From the NCBI GenBank assembly GCA_037574385.1, contig GCA_037574385.1_4529.1: a stretch of 64,000 nucleotides of DNA; one strand, given 5' to 3'. Below are positions 125-49,994 of this stretch, piece by piece. The translations under genes were made by a program, and so were the position numbers. This DNA comes from a phage. The stretch's first letter is position 1. Each line of letters starts with the position of its first letter. The notes beneath the pieces were generated by a model. That model did not search any database, was not told where the DNA came from, and worked only from the letters and a program-made list of their open reading frames with translations.

Positions 125-1006
125 TTATCCAGCCACAAAACTCTCTTCAACACACTGAATAAAAGTGTGCATCGCCGGGCTAACCGCTTTTCCAGCATGG
201 TGTGCGCACATGGCCGTAATGGTCTGCGACTGTTCGCCAAAAGGCAATTCAATTAATTCTCCGCTCTCAAGCTCTTTTTCCACCGCAAAGCGGGGCAAGT
301 AACTGACACCGATATTCGCCGCGACACAACGTTTGATACTTTCAATGCTTAACAGCTCAATGGTGTTTTCCACCGTGATCCGCCGCTGACGCAGCGTGCT
401 CTCAAATATCTGCCGGAAGACACATTGCGGTTCGTTGATAATAAAGCTACAGGCGTTATGTCTTCCCGGCTCAGTAAAATCGACATCTGCAATTTGCGGT
501 GAAGCCACCAGCACCAGCGATTGTTCACCCAACTCTCGTCGGTTCAGGGCATCATCATTCCCTACGCGATAAAAGACGCCGACATCGGCCTCATCATTCA
601 GTAGCGCATCACGGATCACGTAACAGTTCAGCGACTGCAACGATAAACGCACTTTTGGTGCGCGTTGCCGAAAACGCTGCAACACCTGCGGCATTCGGTA
701 AGAGAGCAACGTTTCGCCCGAAACAACGCGTAGTTCCCCGTCCGGATCTGACTCCTTTTTGGCAGCCTCACGAAGCGTATCCATCACTCGGGTAAGTTCA
801 TAAATGTGCGGCAGCAACTTTTTTCCTTCGCGGGTAAGGCACATCCGTCGGCCAATTTTCTCAAATAACTGGACTGAAAACTCCTGCTCAAGCTGCTGAA
901 TATGAAAAGTCACCGTCGATTGTGTACAGCACAATTTTTGCGAAGCTCGCAAAAAGGAACCCTCTTCCACCACGGTTTTAAGCGTAATAAAACGGCGCAG
1001 ATCCAT
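125..1006 (-). CDS. yfiE: LysR-family transcriptional regulator (start taken at MDLRRFITL, internal to the ORF-track ORF)
   Basis: N-terminal HTH (LRRFITLKTVVEEGSFLRASQKLCCTQSTV) plus LysR substrate-binding-like C-terminus; divergent from eamB as in E. coli; ~50% GC. Confidence 0.75.
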   Translation of the reverse strand: MDLRRFITLKTVVEEGSFLRASQKLCCTQSTVTFHIQQLEQEFSVQLFEKIGRRMCLTREGKKLLPHIYELTRVMDTLREAAKKESDPDGELRVVSGETLLSYRMPQVLQRFRQRAPKVRLSLQSLNCYVIRDALLNDEADVGVFYRVGNDDALNRRELGEQSLVLVASPQIADVDFTEPGRHNACSFIINEPQCVFRQIFESTLRQRRITVENTIELLSIESIKRCVAANIGVSYLPRFAVEKELESGELIELPFGEQSQTITAMCAHHAGKAVSPAMHTFIQCVEESFVAG

Positions 1007-2429: not shown

Positions 2430-2965
2430 TGCATTCCAATCACAAAAAATTGAGGACGAGCAATACCGCCGTTGCAATATTTGCTTTTACAGCAGTGTTG
2501 GACTGTTTTAATATGGACATTGTAAATCTTATCCATATCAGGAGCTTTAATAGGCTCGTCAATTATATACAGAATACGAGAAAGCGTTAATCCACGGAAT
2601 TTAGAACCTTCATTGCCAATAAAACTACGAACAGAATCAGTAAATAAACGGAATCGAATATCGTCGCTAGAATAACGAGAAAATTCTTTTTTAATGTTGC
2701 CAACAGAAATTTTAGCATAAGCTGAAGTATTAGAAAGAACAATAACTGTTCCACCATCATACAGCCAATTAACAGCAAAATTAGTTACTGCAGTTGATTT
2801 ACCTGATTGTCTGCCGCCGTCTAAACGAAGTGTACAGTACTGCTTGAGTACATCTTCAAATGGTGGGACATAACCGTTCTTACAAATTTCTTCTACTCTA
2901 GCATCAGAATGGTGTGTAAAAGCATTCATCAGGGATAGATAAGGTCCAGTTAAAAACGTTCTCAT
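2426..2965 (-). CDS. P-loop NTPase of unknown function
   Basis: Walker A GGRQSGKST and Walker B-like ILYIIDEP. Confidence 0.55.
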   Translation of the reverse strand: MRTFLTGPYLSLMNAFTHHSDARVEEICKNGYVPPFEDVLKQYCTLRLDGGRQSGKSTAVTNFAVNWLYDGGTVIVLSNTSAYAKISVGNIKKEFSRYSSDDIRFRLFTDSVRSFIGNEGSKFRGLTLSRILYIIDEPIKAPDMDKIYNVHIKTVQHCCKSKYCNGGIARPQFFVIGMQ

Positions 2966-3138
2966 TTAGTTTCTCTTAAGGTTGGGGCCATTCCATGGCA
3001 CATGTTAGGTCCTTCGACTCACTATGTAAACCCATTACCGCACTTGGGCTCGACCTTATTACAGGTTGGAAAAGGTACATCACTCAGAGGACTCGACGTT
3101 CATGAGGAGAGGTTGCGTTTCCCTTTATTAGGCAAGAA

Positions 3139-3468
3139 TTATACTCTAGGCTTTTGAGCTTGTTTGGTATTGGATTCCCACGCTGCTTTGGTAATTTTGT
3201 TAGCGGCATAGCCAAAGGCATTAGATAGAACACCTTTAGAGTTGAATACATCCAATCCAATAAGTACACCGGCTGCGTTAAATTTAGGAGCAAAGTACGC
3301 ATTAGTTTTAGAAAGAGCTTTTTTCAATTCAGGGTCTTGAACCAAGCCATCAAAAACGCCTTTACTATTTACTTTATATGTTACTTTGGGATTTTTACCT
3401 TCTTCGATAGCAGCTTTCTGTTCCGCAGATAATGTAACTTCAGTGATAAACTCTTGATATGTTTTCAT
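3139..3468 (-). CDS. Capsid-targeted internal protein candidate (CTS-bearing), 109 aa
   Basis: N-terminus MKTYQEFITE matches the T4 internal-protein capsid-targeting sequence (MKTYQEFIAE). Confidence 0.6.
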   Translation of the reverse strand: MKTYQEFITEVTLSAEQKAAIEEGKNPKVTYKVNSKGVFDGLVQDPELKKALSKTNAYFAPKFNAAGVLIGLDVFNSKGVLSNAFGYAANKITKAAWESNTKQAQKPRV

Positions 3469-3509
3469 ATGTTTCCTTTAAATGTAAATAGGCCTAAGTA
3501 TAGGCCTTA

Positions 3510-4088
3510 TTAATTACCACGGGCTGCATTAGCAACGGCGTAAGCGTACTGAACATTAGCGTCTTTAAACGTACCTTTAGAGGTATCTATTTCTGCCTTA
3601 AAGCCGCCTTTAGCCATAACATCGGCAAATTCTTTACGGAAAGCCATTGCGTCAAGACCTTTCCATGATGATTTATGCTTGGCAAATTCAAGACCAGCGT
3701 AGTTGACAGCTTTAGCCAATTTATTATCAATGACCCATTTACCTGCTTTAGGCACAAACTTCGGGCCTTTTTGTTTAGAGAACAGTTTTAAATTCCAGCG
3801 ACGAAGGTCACTGTCGGCTTTAACAAAAGCTGCGTCTAAGTTACTAGCAACAACATCTTCAATATGAGCAAATTTAAGACCATCAACTTCAATATTTAGA
3901 TCGTTACGCCAGCGAAGTCCTTCCCAAGCGAAGGCTTTAAAGTCGGAAGCCTTTGTAGCTAAGTACCGTTCAATAGGAGCAGTTTTAGGGTCAAAGCCGT
4001 TTCCGCCACGATAATTCCACTCGTCCTTATTAATGCCTTGGACTTTTCCTGCAAAGGCCTCGGCGATAAATTCTTTATATGTTTTCAT
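3510..4088 (-). CDS. Capsid-targeted internal protein candidate, 192 aa (size of T4 IPIII); start at internal MKTYKEFIAEA
   Basis: CTS MKTYKEFIAE preceded by RBS AAGGAAAC; ORF-track ORF extends 14 codons upstream. Confidence 0.6.
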   Translation of the reverse strand: MKTYKEFIAEAFAGKVQGINKDEWNYRGGNGFDPKTAPIERYLATKASDFKAFAWEGLRWRNDLNIEVDGLKFAHIEDVVASNLDAAFVKADSDLRRWNLKLFSKQKGPKFVPKAGKWVIDNKLAKAVNYAGLEFAKHKSSWKGLDAMAFRKEFADVMAKGGFKAEIDTSKGTFKDANVQYAYAVANAARGN

Positions 4089-4153
4089 TTTTGTTTCCTT
4101 GTTTGTTTTGATAGAGTAATTATACCCCATATTAATACTTAAGCGTAAACAAT

Positions 4154-4414
4154 TTAAGCTTTACCGCCAGAAATAATTCCGAAGTTGTTAAAATCGTATC
4201 CAATATCGTCAGCATCTACTTTAGGGCTTGCTACAACATAAGCAATTTCACGACGTTTTGCATAGGTGTTGATTTCTTTACCATCGCCACCTAAGAAAGA
4301 ATACCCATTACGTTTTAATGAGCCAAAGTCTTCGGCATCACCAACGAAAGCTTTAACTTTAAATTTGGGGTCTTTGGCATCTGCTTCAGTGATAAATTCT
4401 TGATACATTTTCAT
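4154..4414 (-). CDS. Capsid-targeted internal protein candidate, 86 aa; start at internal MKMYQEFITEA
   Basis: CTS-like N-terminus MKMYQEFITE with RBS AAGGAAAAA; immediately downstream of denV. Confidence 0.6.
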   Translation of the reverse strand: MKMYQEFITEADAKDPKFKVKAFVGDAEDFGSLKRNGYSFLGGDGKEINTYAKRREIAYVVASPKVDADDIGYDFNNFGIISGGKA

Positions 4415-4421
4415 TTTTTCC

Positions 4422-4835
4422 TTAGTAAATTGATTTACCATAGTATTTGTACCAAGTCGGACGTTGAGCAATTTTTTCATCTAAGCGTGCTTGACTTATC
4501 GCAATGGACGCTTCGGACGGGACATAATTATTACGAAATTCGGCAGGGATGTCGGAAATATCCTGGACTGTCGTGTCCTTTATTTTGAAACCACGTTTCA
4601 AACATTCAGCGATTAGCTCGATTTGACGTAAACGTAAAAATTCGAGTTTGTCATAAAAGAATGTTACGTGACCTGTGCCTAAGATAAATGTTGGAGAGAT
4701 TTTAAAATCTTTTACACGTTTACCGTTTTGGACATGTTTACGGACTGCACCAAATACGCGTGGTAATTCACGATACTCAGCCATAAGATGTTGGTCGGTC
4801 AGTTCAGAAACAAGTGTTAAATTGATACGAGTCAT
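4422..4835 (-). CDS. denV: Endonuclease V (pyrimidine-dimer DNA glycosylase/AP lyase), start at MTRINLTLV
   Basis: Near-identical over full length to T4 DenV as recalled ([12 protein letters not shown]...[10 protein letters not shown]); RBS GGAGGAAATT. Confidence 0.9.
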
Positions 4836-4863
4836 AATTTCCTCCAAGTAGTTGATAGATGTA

Positions 4864-4893
4864 TAGTATCAAAACCCTTGGAGGAAGTAAACA
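4864..4893 (-). promoter_or_regulatory. T4-type early promoter (-35 GTTTAC, N18, extended -10 TGnTACTAT) upstream of denV
   Basis: Minus-strand GTTTAC...TGATACTAT in the 58-bp gap upstream of denV. Confidence 0.5.
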
Positions 4894-5175
4894 CTATTTT
4901 TCTGAAGCGCCTGAAATATATTTTTCAAGACGTTGTTTCATCAGCGAGCCGTTCTTAGCGATTTCTTCCGGTTTATCGCACATACGCAACAAGGCTTCAA
5001 GCTTAACGATATCGCTGGTACGTTCAAATTTGCGAGTATCTATCTTACTAGCAAGTTCAGAAATACGTGCTAATAGACTTTCAGCTTCAACCAAAGCTGC
5101 ACCTAGCTTAGTTGCAAATGTGTCAGTAGCTTCGTTAAGAATAGATTCTGATAAAAATTCACTATATGTTTTCAT
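4894..5175 (-). CDS. Capsid-targeted internal protein candidate, 93 aa; start at [10 protein letters not shown]
   Basis: CTS-like N-terminus; its ATG overlaps the TGA stop of gene e (ATGA coupling); sits at the T4 ipII/ipIII position. Confidence 0.6.
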
Positions 5176-6867: not shown

Positions 6868-7553
6868 TACCAGCCTTCCATAGGGAATTCCAGATAAACT
6901 TGAGCATTGACACGAATTTCATTGGTAATCTTTTTAACTCGGTCTGTATTACGAGATACACGTCCGAACCAACGCCATCCATTACTAATTGCACGAGAAC
7001 CAGTGTGCCATGTTTGCCAATCAAACTGAAGAAGAGTACGGTCTGGAGCTTCCCATTTCTCTAGTTCACCTTTTTCAATTTTTTCGAGGACTTCTTTGTG
7101 CCACTGGCGATAGATAAGTTCGCCATCAGGAATCTGACTGAACTCTGCAGTTCCTGTTGCAAAATGAGTAGGACACACGTCAGCGTTAACAAGGCCAAGA
7201 ATATGTTCAGACAAATAGCGAGGATTGTCATAATCAGGTTGTCCTGCAGTAATAAAATGTTGACCAACCGGAATATCCGGACGTGGTACATCGTCATGGT
7301 GATAACCTGGGATAGCAGGGTACCAACCAGGCATCAGCATGTGGACTCGTGAATCAAATACTACATCCGAGCCTTTCCAATCGTCAGGGAGATTTTGGAT
7401 AAAGCTACGAGTAATTGGACCGCCGTTATCCCAAGCAAAACTCAAATCACAGTTAAAGAACATTTGTTCATTTTTGATTTGGTCATTTTGTACGTTATGA
7501 GCAAAACCACCTACTGCACGAGCTTGACTATTAAACACTTTAGAACTATTCAT
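6867..7553 (-). CDS. Hypothetical protein (228 aa), no recognisable motif
   Basis: Long ORF in hyperplastic region; His/Asp-rich patches (HHDD, PTHFATG). Confidence 0.5.
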   Translation of the reverse strand: MNSSKVFNSQARAVGGFAHNVQNDQIKNEQMFFNCDLSFAWDNGGPITRSFIQNLPDDWKGSDVVFDSRVHMLMPGWYPAIPGYHHDDVPRPDIPVGQHFITAGQPDYDNPRYLSEHILGLVNADVCPTHFATGTAEFSQIPDGELIYRQWHKEVLEKIEKGELEKWEAPDRTLLQFDWQTWHTGSRAISNGWRWFGRVSRNTDRVKKITNEIRVNAQVYLEFPMEGW

Positions 7554-11787: not shown

Positions 11788-12015
11788 TTATTTTTTAATC
11801 AAATTGACATAAAACTTGGCGTCTTCTGGGTGCATGCCTTCGCAATATTCTTCAACCATGAACTTCTTAACAGCTTCATAAGGACCACTCAGATTAAGCT
11901 CAGTTGTCCAGAACTTGGAATCTTGGACTGAATCGATACGAACTTCAGGGTGTCGGTTGCGAATAACTTCTTCGGTGTATTCATAATCAACGACATCAAT
12001 ACTAACTTTAGCCAT
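11788..12015 (-). CDS. Hypothetical small protein (75 aa)
   Basis: ORF with RBS GAGGAGAAA preceded by the promoter/5'UTR module also found at ~48620. Confidence 0.45.
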   Translation of the reverse strand: MAKVSIDVVDYEYTEEVIRNRHPEVRIDSVQDSKFWTTELNLSGPYEAVKKFMVEEYCEGMHPEDAKFYVNLIKK

Positions 12016-12044
12016 TTTGTTTCTCCTCTGTAGTTGATAAGTCT

Positions 12045-12074
12045 ATAGTATCACCATCCTTGGTGTTTGTACAT
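12045..12074 (-). promoter_or_regulatory. Early-promoter-like element (TGATACTAT extended -10; divergent -35)
   Basis: About 30 bp identical to the cassette upstream of 48344..48613 (gtagttgataagtctatagtatcac). Confidence 0.4.
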
Positions 12075-27967: not shown

Positions 27968-28964
27968 TTCAAGTGTTGTCTATCGTTCGATAGTTACTTC
28001 AAAATTTAGAACTGAAAAAATGTTGAATTTCTACAATTCAATAGGTGATGGTGATAATAAAAACACCATCTTTATAACGTTTGGTCGGTCTGAACCATGG
28101 GCTGCTAATGAAAATGAGGTGGGCTTCGCCCCACCGTATCCAACAGACTCGGTTTTAGGTGTAACAGATATGTGGACTAACATGATGGGTTTAGTTAAAG
28201 TTATCCCATCTATGTTAGACTCGGTTATTCCTAGACGTGACTGGGGAGATATTCGTTATCCAGACCCTTATACATTCAAAATAAATGATATAGTCGTATG
28301 TAATACAGCCCCATATAATGCCACTGAAGTCGGGGCCGGATGGTTAGTATATCGTTGCGTAGATGTTCCTGATGTTGGGATGTGTTCTATTGAGTCTCTC
28401 GACAACAAAGAAGAATGTCTTAAATTAGGCGGTAAATGGACTCCATCTGTTAGGTCTTTAACCCCTCCTGAAGGCCGTGGAGATGCTGAAGGTATTATCG
28501 AAGTTGGCGATGGATATATATGGGAGTATCTTTATGAGATTCCACCCGATGTGTCTATAAACCGATGTACTAATGAATATATAGTCGTTCCATGGCCGGA
28601 AGAAGTTAAAGAAGACCCTGCTCGTTGGGGATATGAAAACAATCTAACCTGGCAACAAGATGATTTTGGCCTTGTGTATAGAGTTAAAGCAAACATAATT
28701 CGTTTTAAAGCCTATTTAGACTCAGTTTATTTCCCTAATGCAGCACTGCCTGGTAATAAAGGATTTAGACAAATTTCTATTATCACAAACCCGTTGGAAG
28801 CTAAACTCCGTCCTAATGACCCTAATATAAAAGCTGAAAAGGATTATTATGACCCCAGAGATTTACAACGTCATTCGGGTGAAATGATTTATATGGAAAA
28901 CCGTCCACCTATTATTATGGCAATGGACCAAACCGAAGAAATCAATATTTTGTTTATGTTCTAA
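27960..28964 (+). CDS. 8: gp8 baseplate wedge protein
   Basis: 334 aa as T4 gp8. Confidence 0.85.
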   Translation: MNDSSVVYRSIVTSKFRTEKMLNFYNSIGDGDNKNTIFITFGRSEPWAANENEVGFAPPYPTDSVLGVTDMWTNMMGLVKVIPSMLDSVIPRRDWGDIRYPDPYTFKINDIVVCNTAPYNATEVGAGWLVYRCVDVPDVGMCSIESLDNKEECLKLGGKWTPSVRSLTPPEGRGDAEGIIEVGDGYIWEYLYEIPPDVSINRCTNEYIVVPWPEEVKEDPARWGYENNLTWQQDDFGLVYRVKANIIRFKAYLDSVYFPNAALPGNKGFRQISIITNPLEAKLRPNDPNIKAEKDYYDPRDLQRHSGEMIYMENRPPIIMAMDQTEEINILFMF

Positions 28965-28968
28965 TTTA

Positions 28969-28986
28969 GGGAGACTTCGGTCTCCC
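28969..28986 (+). terminator. Stable hairpin GGGAGAC-UUCG-GUCUCCC after gene 8
   Basis: Perfect 7-bp stem with UUCG tetraloop, followed by UUUCG. Confidence 0.5.
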
Positions 28987-46722: not shown

Positions 46723-48291
46723 ATGACTACTATCAAAACTAAAGCTCAGCTCGTAGACAAATGGAAAGAACTGCTGGAAGGTGAAGGCCTGCCGGAAATC
46801 GCTAATAGCAAGCAGGCTATTATCGCTAAAATCTTCGAAAACCAGGAAAAAGATTTCGAAGTATCCCCTGAATATAAAGACGAGAAAATCGCTCAGGCAT
46901 TTGGTTCTTTCTTGACCGAAGCTGAAATTGGTGGTGACCACGGTTATAATGCTCAGAACATCGCAGCAGGTCAAACCTCTGGTGCAGTAACCCAGATTGG
47001 GCCAGCAGTTATGGGTATGGTTCGTCGTGCTATTCCTAATCTGATCGCTTTTGATATTTGTGGTGTTCAGCCTATGAACAGCCCTACCGGTCAGGTATTT
47101 GCTCTTCGTGCAGTATATGGTAAAGACCCTATCGCTGCTGGCGCTAAAGAAGCTTTCCATCCGATGTATGCTCCGGATGCAATGTTCTCTGGTCAGGGCG
47201 CTGCTAAGAAATTCCCGGCGTTGGCTGCTAGCACACAAACCGTTGTAGGTGATATCTATACTCACTTCTTCCAGGAAACTGGTACTGTATATCTGCAAGC
47301 TTCCGCTGTAGTAACAATCGATGCTAGTGCTAACGATGCAACTAAATTAGATGCTGAAATTAAGAAACAAATGGAAGCGGGTGTACTGGTAGAAATCGCT
47401 GAAGGTATGGCTACTTCTATTGCTGAACTTCAGGAAGGTTTCAACGGTTCTACTGATAACCCATGGAATGAAATGGGCTTCCGTATCGATAAACAAGTTA
47501 TCGAAGCTAAATCTCGCCAGCTGAAAGCTGCTTACTCTATCGAATTAGCACAAGACCTCCGTGCAGTACACGGTATGGATGCTGATGCTGAACTGAGCGG
47601 TATCCTGGCTACAGAAATTATGCTAGAAATCAACCGTGAAGTTGTTGACTGGATTAACTACTCTGCTCAGGTTGGTAAATCTGGTATGACCCTGACTCCG
47701 GGTTCTAAAGCTGGTGTATTTGACTTCCAGGACCCGATTGATATCCGTGGTGCTCGTTGGGCCGGTGAAAGCTTTAAATCTCTGTTGTTCCAGATTGATA
47801 AAGAAGCAGTTGAAATCGCTCGTCAAACCGGTCGTGGTGAAGGTAACTTCATTATCGCTTCCCGTAACGTAGTTAACGTACTGGCTTCAGTTGATACTGG
47901 TATTTCTTACGCTGCACAGGGTCTGGCTTCTGGTTTTAATACTGACACTACTAAGTCTGTATTTGCCGGTGTACTTGGTGGTAAATACCGCGTATACATC
48001 GACCAGTATGCTAAACAGGATTACTTCACCGTTGGTTATAAAGGCGCTAACGAAATGGATGCAGGTATTTACTATGCTCCTTACGTTGCACTTACCCCGC
48101 TGCGTGGTTCCGATCCTAAGAACTTCCAGCCGGTAATGGGCTTTAAAACTCGTTACGGTATCGGTGTTAACCCGTTTGCTGAAAGTTCCCTGCAGGCTCC
48201 AGGTGCTCGCATCCAGTCCGGTATGCCGTCTATCCTGAACAGCCTTGGTAAGAACGCTTACTTCCGCCGTGTATATGTAAAAGGCATCTAA
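46723..48291 (+). CDS. 23: gp23 major capsid protein
   Basis: 522 aa (T4 521); synteny. Confidence 0.95.
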   Translation: MTTIKTKAQLVDKWKELLEGEGLPEIANSKQAIIAKIFENQEKDFEVSPEYKDEKIAQAFGSFLTEAEIGGDHGYNAQNIAAGQTSGAVTQIGPAVMGMVRRAIPNLIAFDICGVQPMNSPTGQVFALRAVYGKDPIAAGAKEAFHPMYAPDAMFSGQGAAKKFPALAASTQTVVGDIYTHFFQETGTVYLQASAVVTIDASANDATKLDAEIKKQMEAGVLVEIAEGMATSIAELQEGFNGSTDNPWNEMGFRIDKQVIEAKSRQLKAAYSIELAQDLRAVHGMDADAELSGILATEIMLEINREVVDWINYSAQVGKSGMTLTPGSKAGVFDFQDPIDIRGARWAGESFKSLLFQIDKEAVEIARQTGRGEGNFIIASRNVVNVLASVDTGISYAAQGLASGFNTDTTKSVFAGVLGGKYRVYIDQYAKQDYFTVGYKGANEMDAGIYYAPYVALTPLRGSDPKNFQPVMGFKTRYGIGVNPFAESSLQAPGARIQSGMPSILNSLGKNAYFRRVYVKGI

Positions 48292-48315
48292 TCTTAATTG
48301 ATTAAATCTTATTTT

Positions 48316-48333
48316 GGGAGACTTCGGTCTCCC
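48316..48333 (+). terminator. Rho-independent terminator after gene 23
   Basis: GGGAGAC-UUCG-GUCUCCC followed by AUUUUUGGUUUU. Confidence 0.6.
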
Positions 48334-48343
48334 ATTTTTGGTT

Positions 48344-48613
48344 TTATTTCTGGGCAATTTCGATGTAAGTTTTCAAAATATTTTGCCAATTAGGCATACC
48401 TTCTTGGACATATGCTGGAGAACCGTCTTTGTTTTTGAATGATGCAAGTTTATCAGTGGCCCAATAGCCTTTAGCTCGAGCTTCAGAATCAACTTTCATC
48501 CATACTTTGTTGAAGGCATTACCATTAACTTTTGCACCATATTTTTCTACTAACTTAACCGCTTCAGCTTCCAGAACTTTTAAAGTATCTCGTAAGAAAC
48601 GTGCTTTAGTCAT
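48344..48613 (-). CDS. Hypothetical small protein (89 aa) at the T4 segD position between genes 23 and 24
   Basis: Minus-strand ORF with RBS GAGGAG and its own early promoter; not homing-endonuclease-like. Confidence 0.5.
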   Translation of the reverse strand: MTKARFLRDTLKVLEAEAVKLVEKYGAKVNGNAFNKVWMKVDSEARAKGYWATDKLASFKNKDGSPAYVQEGMPNWQNILKTYIEIAQK

Positions 48614-48643
48614 TTTGTTTACTCCTCTGTAGTTGATAAGTCT

Positions 48644-48673
48644 ATAGTATCACATACCAAATACGTTGTAAAC
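48644..48673 (-). promoter_or_regulatory. T4-type early promoter (GTTTAC-N18-TGATACTAT) for the 89-aa gene
   Basis: Same ~30-bp promoter/5'UTR module as at ~12030. Confidence 0.5.
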
Positions 48674-48679
48674 AATCTT

Positions 48680-48687
48680 TATAAATA
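48680..48687 (+). promoter_or_regulatory. T4 late promoter TATAAATA for gene 24
   Basis: Exact TATAAATA 26 bp upstream of gene 24 start. Confidence 0.55.
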
Positions 48688-48713: not shown

Positions 48714-49994
48714 ATGAGTAAAATCCAAAAATTATTGCGTGAATCTACAACGTCTACTAGCAACTCAATTGGTCGCCCAAATCTTGTTGCTTTGACTCGC
48801 GCTACGACTAAATTAATATATTCTGACATTGTGGCAACACAAAGAACTAATCAACCTGTTGCTGCTTTTTATGGTATTAAATATCTTAACCCAGACAACG
48901 AATTAACGTTTAAAACTGGTGCTACTTATGCCGGCGAAGTTGGATATGTAGACCGAGAAAAAATTACTGAACTCACAGAAGAATCAAAAGTCACACTAAA
49001 TAAAGGCGATTTTTTCAAATATAATAATATCGTCTATAAAGTGTTAGAAGATACACCATTTGCAGATATTCAAGAAAGTGATCTAGAATTAGCTCTTCAG
49101 ATTGCAGTCGTTCATTTAAAGGTACGGTTATTTTCAGATGCAGCGGTGACAAGCAAATTTGAAAGCTCTGGTAGCGAAATTTCTGATGCAAGATTCCAAA
49201 TTAATAAATGGCAAACTTCGGTCAAATCTCGTAAACTTAAAACCGGTCTCACGGTTGAATTAGCGCAAGATTTGGAAGCGAATGGATTTGATGCCCCTAA
49301 CTTCTTAGAAGATTTGCTTGCTACTGAAATGGCTGATGAAATTAATAAAGATATTCTTCAGTCTTTAATTACTGTATCGAAACGTTATAAAGTTACTGGA
49401 ATTACTGACACCGGATTTATTGACTTGAGCTATGCATCCGCTCCAGAAGCAGGTCGTTCGTTATATCGAATGGTGTGTGAAATGGTATCACACATTCAAA
49501 AAGAGTCAACTTATACTGCGACGTTTTGTGTAGCTTCAGCTCGTGCAGCTGCTATTCTTGCTGCTTCAGGTTGGTTAAAACATAAACCAGAAGATGATAA
49601 GTATCTTTCACAAAATGCTTACGGGTTCTTAGCTAATGGTTTACCGCTTTATTGCGATACTAACAGCCCATTAGATTATGTGATCGTTGGCGTAGTAGAA
49701 AATATCGGTGAAAAAGAAATTGTTGGATCAATTTTCTATGCCCCGTATACAGAAGGTCTCGACTTAGATGACCCGGAACATGTTGGTGCATTTAAAGTTG
49801 TAGTTGATCCAGAAAGCTTGCAACCGTCTATTGGTTTATTGGTTAGATACGCTTTATCTGCGAATCCTTACACAGTAGCAAAAGATGAAAAAGAAGCGAG
49901 AATAATTGATGGCGGGGACATGGATAAAATGGCGGGACGTTCGGACTTGTCTGTTTTACTTGGTGTTAAATTGCCTAAAATTATTATAGATTAA
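48714..49994 (+). CDS. 24: gp24 capsid vertex protein
   Basis: 426 aa (T4 427); synteny. Confidence 0.9.
   Translation: MSKIQKLLRESTTSTSNSIGRPNLVALTRATTKLIYSDIVATQRTNQPVAAFYGIKYLNPDNELTFKTGATYAGEVGYVDREKITELTEESKVTLNKGDFFKYNNIVYKVLEDTPFADIQESDLELALQIAVVHLKVRLFSDAAVTSKFESSGSEISDARFQINKWQTSVKSRKLKTGLTVELAQDLEANGFDAPNFLEDLLATEMADEINKDILQSLITVSKRYKVTGITDTGFIDLSYASAPEAGRSLYRMVCEMVSHIQKESTYTATFCVASARAAAILAASGWLKHKPEDDKYLSQNAYGFLANGLPLYCDTNSPLDYVIVGVVENIGEKEIVGSIFYAPYTEGLDLDDPEHVGAFKVVVDPESLQPSIGLLVRYALSANPYTVAKDEKEARIIDGGDMDKMAGRSDLSVLLGVKLPKIIID

Follow-up and report, generated by a model that had tools for sequence, protein, structure and literature searches.

In phage T4, the interval between the major capsid gene 23 and the capsid vertex gene 24 holds segD, a free-standing GIY-YIG homing endonuclease gene in antisense orientation, for which a 2010 review found that no specific promoter had been identified (PMC2988022). 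Insertions of additional genes between conserved ones are also familiar from lambdoid phages, where morons (in the sense of Hendrix and Juhala) are autonomous promoter-gene-terminator units. T4-type phages further possess promoter-early stem-loop (PeSL) cassettes (Arbiol 2010, PMC2839356; Comeau 2014, PMC4122927), and an early-promoter consensus of TTTACW-N17-TAYWAT was derived from the phage pair PST/T4 (PMC4122927).

In the phage DNA analysed here (a 64,000-nt stretch, referred to as the window), an 89-aa ORF that is absent from T4 lies between genes 23 and 24. We consider it probable that this ORF and its signals form a conserved, non-essential accessory early gene of Mosigvirus (the RB69ORF188c/PHROG 6003 family), organized as a compact antisense transcription unit between the two late genes. 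The unit resembles the T4 segD locus in its slot, its antisense orientation, and its divergent regulatory region, in which a late promoter is paired with TTTACA-17-TAYTAT preceded by TG. Its product, however, has 89 residues compared with roughly 220 in SegD, and contains neither a GIY-YIG nor any other nuclease domain.

The first-pass annotation had described the locus as a moron-type insertion at a known hotspot, a description that fits in part. Like a moron, the unit is extra DNA between genes that are adjacent in relatives (separated there by only 83-90 bp), it has its own candidate promoter and the opposite orientation, it is non-essential, and the slot in which it resides is variable. 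Unlike a moron, it belongs to a virulent phage and so cannot be expressed from a prophage, it probably has no proper minus-strand terminator of its own, and it is old and present throughout the genus (with homologs in sister genera) rather than sporadic, private or recent. Nor does it differ in composition from the phage genome, as the GC content of the ORF is 36.3% compared with 38.2% in the window and 38.6 ± 3.4% in small minus-strand ORFs; on this phage-like base composition, a recent foreign origin was rejected.

Layout and identity of the ORF

All of the elements that the first-pass annotation had described (the minus-strand ORF, its Shine-Dalgarno sequence, the early promoter, the gene 23 terminator, and the gene 24 late promoter) were recovered in place (Table 1), and as sequence signals they support its view of an independent unit of early transcription, antisense to the two late structural genes that enclose it. 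The -35 hexamer of the early promoter and the gene 24 late promoter stand back-to-back on opposite strands with 7 nt between them, and the ribosome-binding site of gene 24 lies between the late promoter and the gene 24 ATG. The translation-initiation region of the ORF is unstructured according to folding, and its stop codon adjoins the T-run of the gene 23 terminator. The terminator hairpin also folds on the minus strand, where it is followed by AAAAUAAG without a U-tract; the minus-strand fold has -19 kcal/mol (z -5.4) over the whole 91-nt stretch, including a second small hairpin. The stem region of the terminator recurs at a second place in the window as a 23-nt near-copy (28964..28986; 95.7%), which suggests that terminator hairpin sequence has been reused. 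A search of the locus against Rfam gave nothing near gathering scores.

Table 1. Features of the gene 23-24 interval and its flanks (positions in the window).
Feature	Position	Strand	Basis or remark
89-aa ORF, ATG start	48344..48613	-	RB69ORF188c / PHROG 6003 family
Shine-Dalgarno GAGGAG, 8 nt 5' of the ORF ATG	48622..48627	-	sequence
Candidate early sigma-70 promoter, T4-type: TTTACA, 17-nt spacer, TG-n-TACTAT	48644..48672	-	consensus match
-10 / 5'UTR / SD / start segment of the ORF unit	48604..48653	-	second copy in the window
Gene 23 intrinsic terminator, GGGAGAC-TTCG-GTCTCCC + T-run	48315..48344	+	hairpin 48315..48334
Gene 24 late promoter TATAAATA, T4 consensus	48680..48687	+	kept in all aligned genera
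Gene 23, major capsid protein, upstream flank of the slot	46723..48291	+	
Gene 24, capsid vertex protein, downstream flank of the slot	48714..49994	+	ATG at 48714

Based on this layout, transcription by host RNA polymerase with sigma-70 would begin at the T4-type early promoter within minutes of infection, as we infer from its consensus match and its conservation across genera. A roughly 24-nt unstructured leader and a strong Shine-Dalgarno sequence would then permit efficient translation, and the transcript would extend as far as the hairpin of the gene 23 terminator, which both units share. Because a U-tract is absent on the minus strand, this hairpin more likely acts there in 3'-end stabilisation or weak termination.

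At the nucleotide level, 22 phage records match the 600 bp surrounding the ORF with an identity of at least 99%, and 115 more do so with 95-99%. PhAPEC2, JS09, HX01, ST0, and APCEc01, all Mosigvirus (RB69-like), are among the best matches, and by this similarity the window is a Mosigvirus phage. The ORF protein is 100% identical to "hypothetical" proteins of dozens of Mosigvirus phages in GenBank, and its ortholog in PhAPEC2 (LD34_gp220) is annotated as a hypothetical protein similar to RB69ORF188c (NP_861878.1). It matches PHROG 6003, a family of unassigned function, with an E-value of 2.1e-45 (residues 1-89 aligned to the full 90 positions of the profile). With tblastn, homologs were located in 240 phage records, 71 of which reach ≥99% identity, and in about 120 GenBank records with 95-100% protein identity the position, orientation, and flanking signals are alike; indeed, the coliphages with the ORF in this slot, RB69-like and related ones, number in the hundreds. 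Judged by these matches, it is an already annotated gene of the RB69ORF188c family that has been in GenBank for about two decades, and is not new. The literature search returned no mention of the gene as RB69ORF188c, phrog_6003, NP_861878, or YP_009056762, the only match to "ORF188c" concerning ORFs of other phages, and a search for Mosigvirus transcriptomics found nothing useful. One JGI record names a 90-aa homolog "NADPH-dependent curcumin reductase CurA", a name that is spurious given that the homolog is small and lies in the gp23-gp24 interval of a 173-kb T4-like contig.

Conservation, selection and dispensability

Homologs with 30-38% identity are present at the same place and in the same orientation in Gaprivervirus VR20 and in Dhakavirus QL01 and 04086, and metagenomic T4-like contigs contain homologs with 35-70% identity in the same antisense position. 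Every T4-like homolog that we examined lies antisense between gp23 and gp24. Relative to the window, the ORF falls into two identity classes, a Mosigvirus-type (62-70%) and a Dhakavirus/Gaprivervirus-type (30-37%), compared with about 83% for gp23 and about 69% for gp24 in the relatives compared. The low identity between the two allele types could mean independent acquisitions of distant alleles instead of one ancient insertion. Downstream of the slot, Dhakavirus, Gaprivervirus, and related metagenomic phages have two tandem gp24 paralogs (capsid vertex I and II), whereas the window and T4 have one gp24 copy each.

The ORF has a dN/dS of 0.07-0.14 in comparisons with unsaturated dS (for example, dN 0.043 and dS 0.32 for QL01 vs. 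04086, and dN 0.032 and dS 0.45 for QL01 vs. LF82-7), and of about 0.13-0.16 in most of those in which dS is saturated, values comparable to those of gp24 in the same phage pairs. Such low ratios identify it as a real gene under purifying selection and not a chance reading frame.

Beyond the T4-like phages, the family is tiny and restricted to phages, as far as the protein searches extend. A profile search of 1.84 billion representative proteins produced nine matches, among which the genuine ones are small phage proteins only, and a broader protein search added only two more of the same kind. The distant members are found among small hypothetical genes of the Vequintavirinae phage ABPH49 and of two metagenomic phage contigs (one siphovirus-like). 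Three matches were rejected, two of them (P0022, 1347 aa, and P0024, 3916 aa) being Big_2/LRR and filamin-type repeat proteins whose scores were summed over repeats, and the third (P0020) an assembly chimera.

The gene can be lost. In the viable isolate mogra (MN850579; excerpt 488..756), an A5 run has lost 1 nt (GAAAAATAT to GAAAATAT), which shifts the reading frame at codon 23 and leaves two short called ORFs of 38 and 51 aa. The same deletion is present in an independent metagenome contig, and one Dhakavirus-type allele is also frameshifted. Since a frameshifted allele occurs in a viable phage, the gene is, by its sequence record, dispensable and accessory.

The early promoter and the 23-24 slot

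The window contains four copies of the extended motif GTTTAC-N18-TACTAT-N5-TATCAA (starting at 4892, 12781, 16255, and 48673, all on the minus strand) and 100 shuffles contain none, and on these counts the early promoter upstream of the ORF is more than a chance pair of hexamers. It is kept at the orthologous site in VR20, QL01, 04086, LF82-7, and T4, and the divergent control region aligns across the genera, including the late promoter, GTTTACA, the -10 element, and the first transcribed bases TAGAC(C/T)TATCAA. In T4 (NC_000866), the sequence upstream of segD reads TTTACA-17-TATTAT with an extended -10 TG (10/12 match; excerpt 7254..7282, minus strand) and aligns with the early promoter of Mosigvirus and Dhakavirus.

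According to the first-pass annotation, the promoter cassette had been copied from the hyperplastic region. A copy does exist: a 50-nt segment at 12006..12054 (minus strand), preceding another small minus-strand ORF (about 75 aa, start 12017), is 96% identical to the -10/5'UTR/SD/start segment but has a different -35 region (ATGTACA), and in most related Mosigvirus genomes the query likewise has a second matching place. Copying into the 23-24 interval is not evident, however: the promoter is conserved at its own locus across four genera, even before T4 segD, and the 23-24 locus may itself be the source of the shared segment. The promoter also recalls PeSL cassettes, in that it fits TTTACW-N17-TAYWAT and flanks a swapped segment (see below) whose breakpoint lies at the Shine-Dalgarno sequence just downstream. 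Unlike those cassettes, the locus is situated in the conserved structural core and not in the hyperplastic region. Moreover, in a comparison of 65-69 nt upstream of the promoter with shuffled sequences, no stem-loop was detected here (z -0.69) or at three other family members (z -0.7 to +1.4 overall), and a PeSL reading in the strict sense was rejected on this ground.

Comparison of the 23-24 region across T4-like phages, which the first-pass annotation had proposed, showed a variable slot with at least four states. The slot is empty in most Tequatrovirus and in Jiaodavirus and Kanagawavirus, where the genes are separated by the short gap given above (examined in Tequatrovirus Bas39, Jiaodavirus Klebsiella KP01 and Mexia, and Kanagawavirus Kosakonia 305); about 450 Tequatrovirus records have this short gap, and only ~342 bp of them, made up of the ends of both genes and the gap, align to the T4 query. 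The 83-bp gap of Bas39 contains a terminator and a late promoter only, and no antisense promoter was seen in its sequence; the gaps of Jiaodavirus and Kanagawavirus are of this kind too. The antisense segD alone occupies the slot in T4, as the first-pass annotation had it, and in 52 other records. The ORF alone is found in Mosigvirus, most Dhakavirus, and Gaprivervirus, which amounts to about 200 phages with the ORF and without segD (121 with the Mosigvirus-type allele and at least 47 with the Dhakavirus-type). Finally, both genes are present in 38 records, in which a segD homolog, with 57% identity to T4 SegD, begins 3 nt past the ORF stop codon and shares the ORF promoter.

As the Dhakavirus-type ORF occurs without segD in 47 records and with it in 38, the distribution points to the ORF as an old, moron-like resident of a variable slot and to segD as a later invader. 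We suggest that segD was inserted 3 nt downstream of the ORF and came to use its promoter, and that in T4 only the promoter and segD would be left. An exchange between genera can be seen in the Mosigvirus phage LF82-7, which is 96% identical to the window up to position 48622 (the Shine-Dalgarno sequence) and again from 48347 (the stop codon), while between these breakpoints a Dhakavirus-type ORF88 and segD (excerpt 2494..3426) replace the Mosigvirus-type ORF. The same kind of block replaces the Mosigvirus-type ORF in KAW3E185. The LF82-7 swap is the expected product of homing with co-conversion, and from its breakpoints looks like an endonuclease-driven, cross-genus event.

Two features of the public record of phage 04086 (OR842557) may be mentioned here. 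Its 223-aa segD homolog (excerpt 2771..3442) is not annotated, and its gp23 is annotated as truncated together with a spurious "hypothetical protein" on the opposite strand, while an intact 519-aa ORF is present (excerpt 3502..5061).

Predicted protein and possible roles

The remote-homology and structure searches that had been proposed for the protein yielded a confident fold and no relative of known function. AlphaFold, supplied with a 14-sequence alignment, gave a pLDDT of 89 and a pTM of 0.76 for a helix-helix-beta-hairpin-helix arrangement (helices 3-25, 31-48, and 76-88; beta-hairpin 56-70). A Dhakavirus-type homolog in BFVD (31% identical) shares this predicted fold with a TM-score of 0.77, but neither the PDB nor the BFVD structure search provided a relative of known function; Foldseek returned nothing from the PDB at E ≤ 0.001. 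The PDB sequence profiles gave no significant match, NCBIfam no match, and PADLOC no match for the window protein and only noise for its relatives. No nuclease domain, including GIY-YIG, was detected with Pfam or NCBIfam, and the ORF product is unrelated to SegD, in agreement with the first-pass annotation, which had seen no endonuclease motif; the only Pfam hit is a sub-threshold DUF4859 (E 0.003), rejected as noise since it is present in only two of the 14 family members, and a literature search on that domain did not mention the gene. In the 12 most diverse members M1, K3, F6, G31, N32, N35, and Q70 are invariant, with G31 and N32 forming a core at the predicted turn between helices 1 and 2 and with N30 and A33 nearly invariant. 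The window protein has a pI of about 9.6, and all members are basic (pI 9.2-9.9) and hydrophilic. The product is predicted to be a soluble basic protein with three helices and a beta-hairpin.

The most likely function, in our analysis, is that of an accessory early host-takeover or counter-defence factor binding a host macromolecule, because the protein is small, basic, early, dispensable, patchy in distribution, phage-restricted, and under purifying selection. Such a factor would presumably matter only in some hosts. AsiA, Dmd, Arn, and Srd are small T4 early proteins of host takeover or counter-defence. The ORF product is like them in general character (about 60-100 aa, an early promoter, dispensability in laboratory hosts, and a patchy distribution), although no sequence or fold similarity to any of the four was detected.

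Several other readings of the locus have to be weighed against this one. The proximity of segD raises the possibility that the ORF is tied to SegD, whether as part of a mobile unit, as a helper or regulator, or as a carrier or protector of the target site, in which case its conservation would reflect selfish-element dynamics and not benefit to the phage. The tandem arrangement behind a common promoter in 38 records, the block replacements in LF82-7 and KAW3E185 (as expected for homing with co-conversion), and the same promoter retained by T4 segD all agree with such a tie. We nevertheless regard it as unlikely, as the two genes also occur apart, with the ORF lacking segD in some 200 phages and segD lacking the ORF in T4 and 52 records, as no endonuclease lies next to the distant homologs of non-T4 phages, and as a mere target site does not explain purifying selection on the protein. 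The antisense RNA, instead of the protein, may alternatively be the functional product, silencing premature read-through of genes 23 and 24 or occluding the late promoter, with the ORF being incidental. The divergent early promoter lies 7 nt from the gene 24 late promoter and points away from it, transcripts passing the minus-strand hairpin without a U-tract may extend antisense into gene 23, and T4 keeps the promoter though the ORF is gone. Yet a dN/dS of 0.07-0.16, a strong Shine-Dalgarno sequence, and an unstructured start point to a translated and selected protein, as does the confident fold prediction, which is shared by a homolog with about 31% identity; with no Rfam family match and apparently no antisense promoter here in most Tequatrovirus, as seen in the gap of Bas39, we find an RNA function very unlikely.

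A role in head assembly, for example as a chaperone or regulator of gp23 or gp24, would explain the fixed position of the gene, and strict gp23-gp24 synteny holds in three genera and in the metagenomic relatives. The first-pass annotation had named homologs universally present at this position with a known structural role as the finding that would speak against an insertion; homologs are indeed universal in Mosigvirus and two sister genera, but no structural role came to light, apart from a very weak match to a PHROG "internal virion protein" family (E 0.09). The ORF is antisense to the late operon and has an early-type rather than a late promoter, it is missing from most Tequatrovirus and from Jiaodavirus and Kanagawavirus despite their homologous capsids, it is frameshifted in the viable mogra, its distant homologs in unrelated phages are located outside the structural regions, and the annotation of PhAPEC2 marks its neighbors as virion proteins and not the ORF itself. 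We therefore consider a head role highly improbable.

The preferred reading of a conserved accessory early gene can be extended to an arms race, in which the ORF represents an uncharacterised early counter-defence or takeover family with two deeply diverged allele classes, SegD acts as the vehicle that sweeps the Dhakavirus-type allele into Mosigvirus by co-conversion, and the T4 segD locus is a decayed remnant that retains a hitherto unrecognised early promoter. This combined scenario is conceivable but rather unlikely.

As a gene, the ORF adds little, being one more small T-even-type early ORF without assigned function, although it offers an experimentally tractable case, in which a compact and dispensable early unit encodes a protein whose fold is predicted with confidence and has no known relative. 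More interesting are the by-products of its analysis, namely the four-state slot, the segD-linked allele swap across genera, and the conserved promoter before T4 segD, which would explain the expression of T4 segD that the 2010 review had left open (PMC2988022). If a host-range or counter-defence phenotype is found for the ORF, the locus would be an example of adaptive genes being carried from one phage genus to another by selfish endonucleases.
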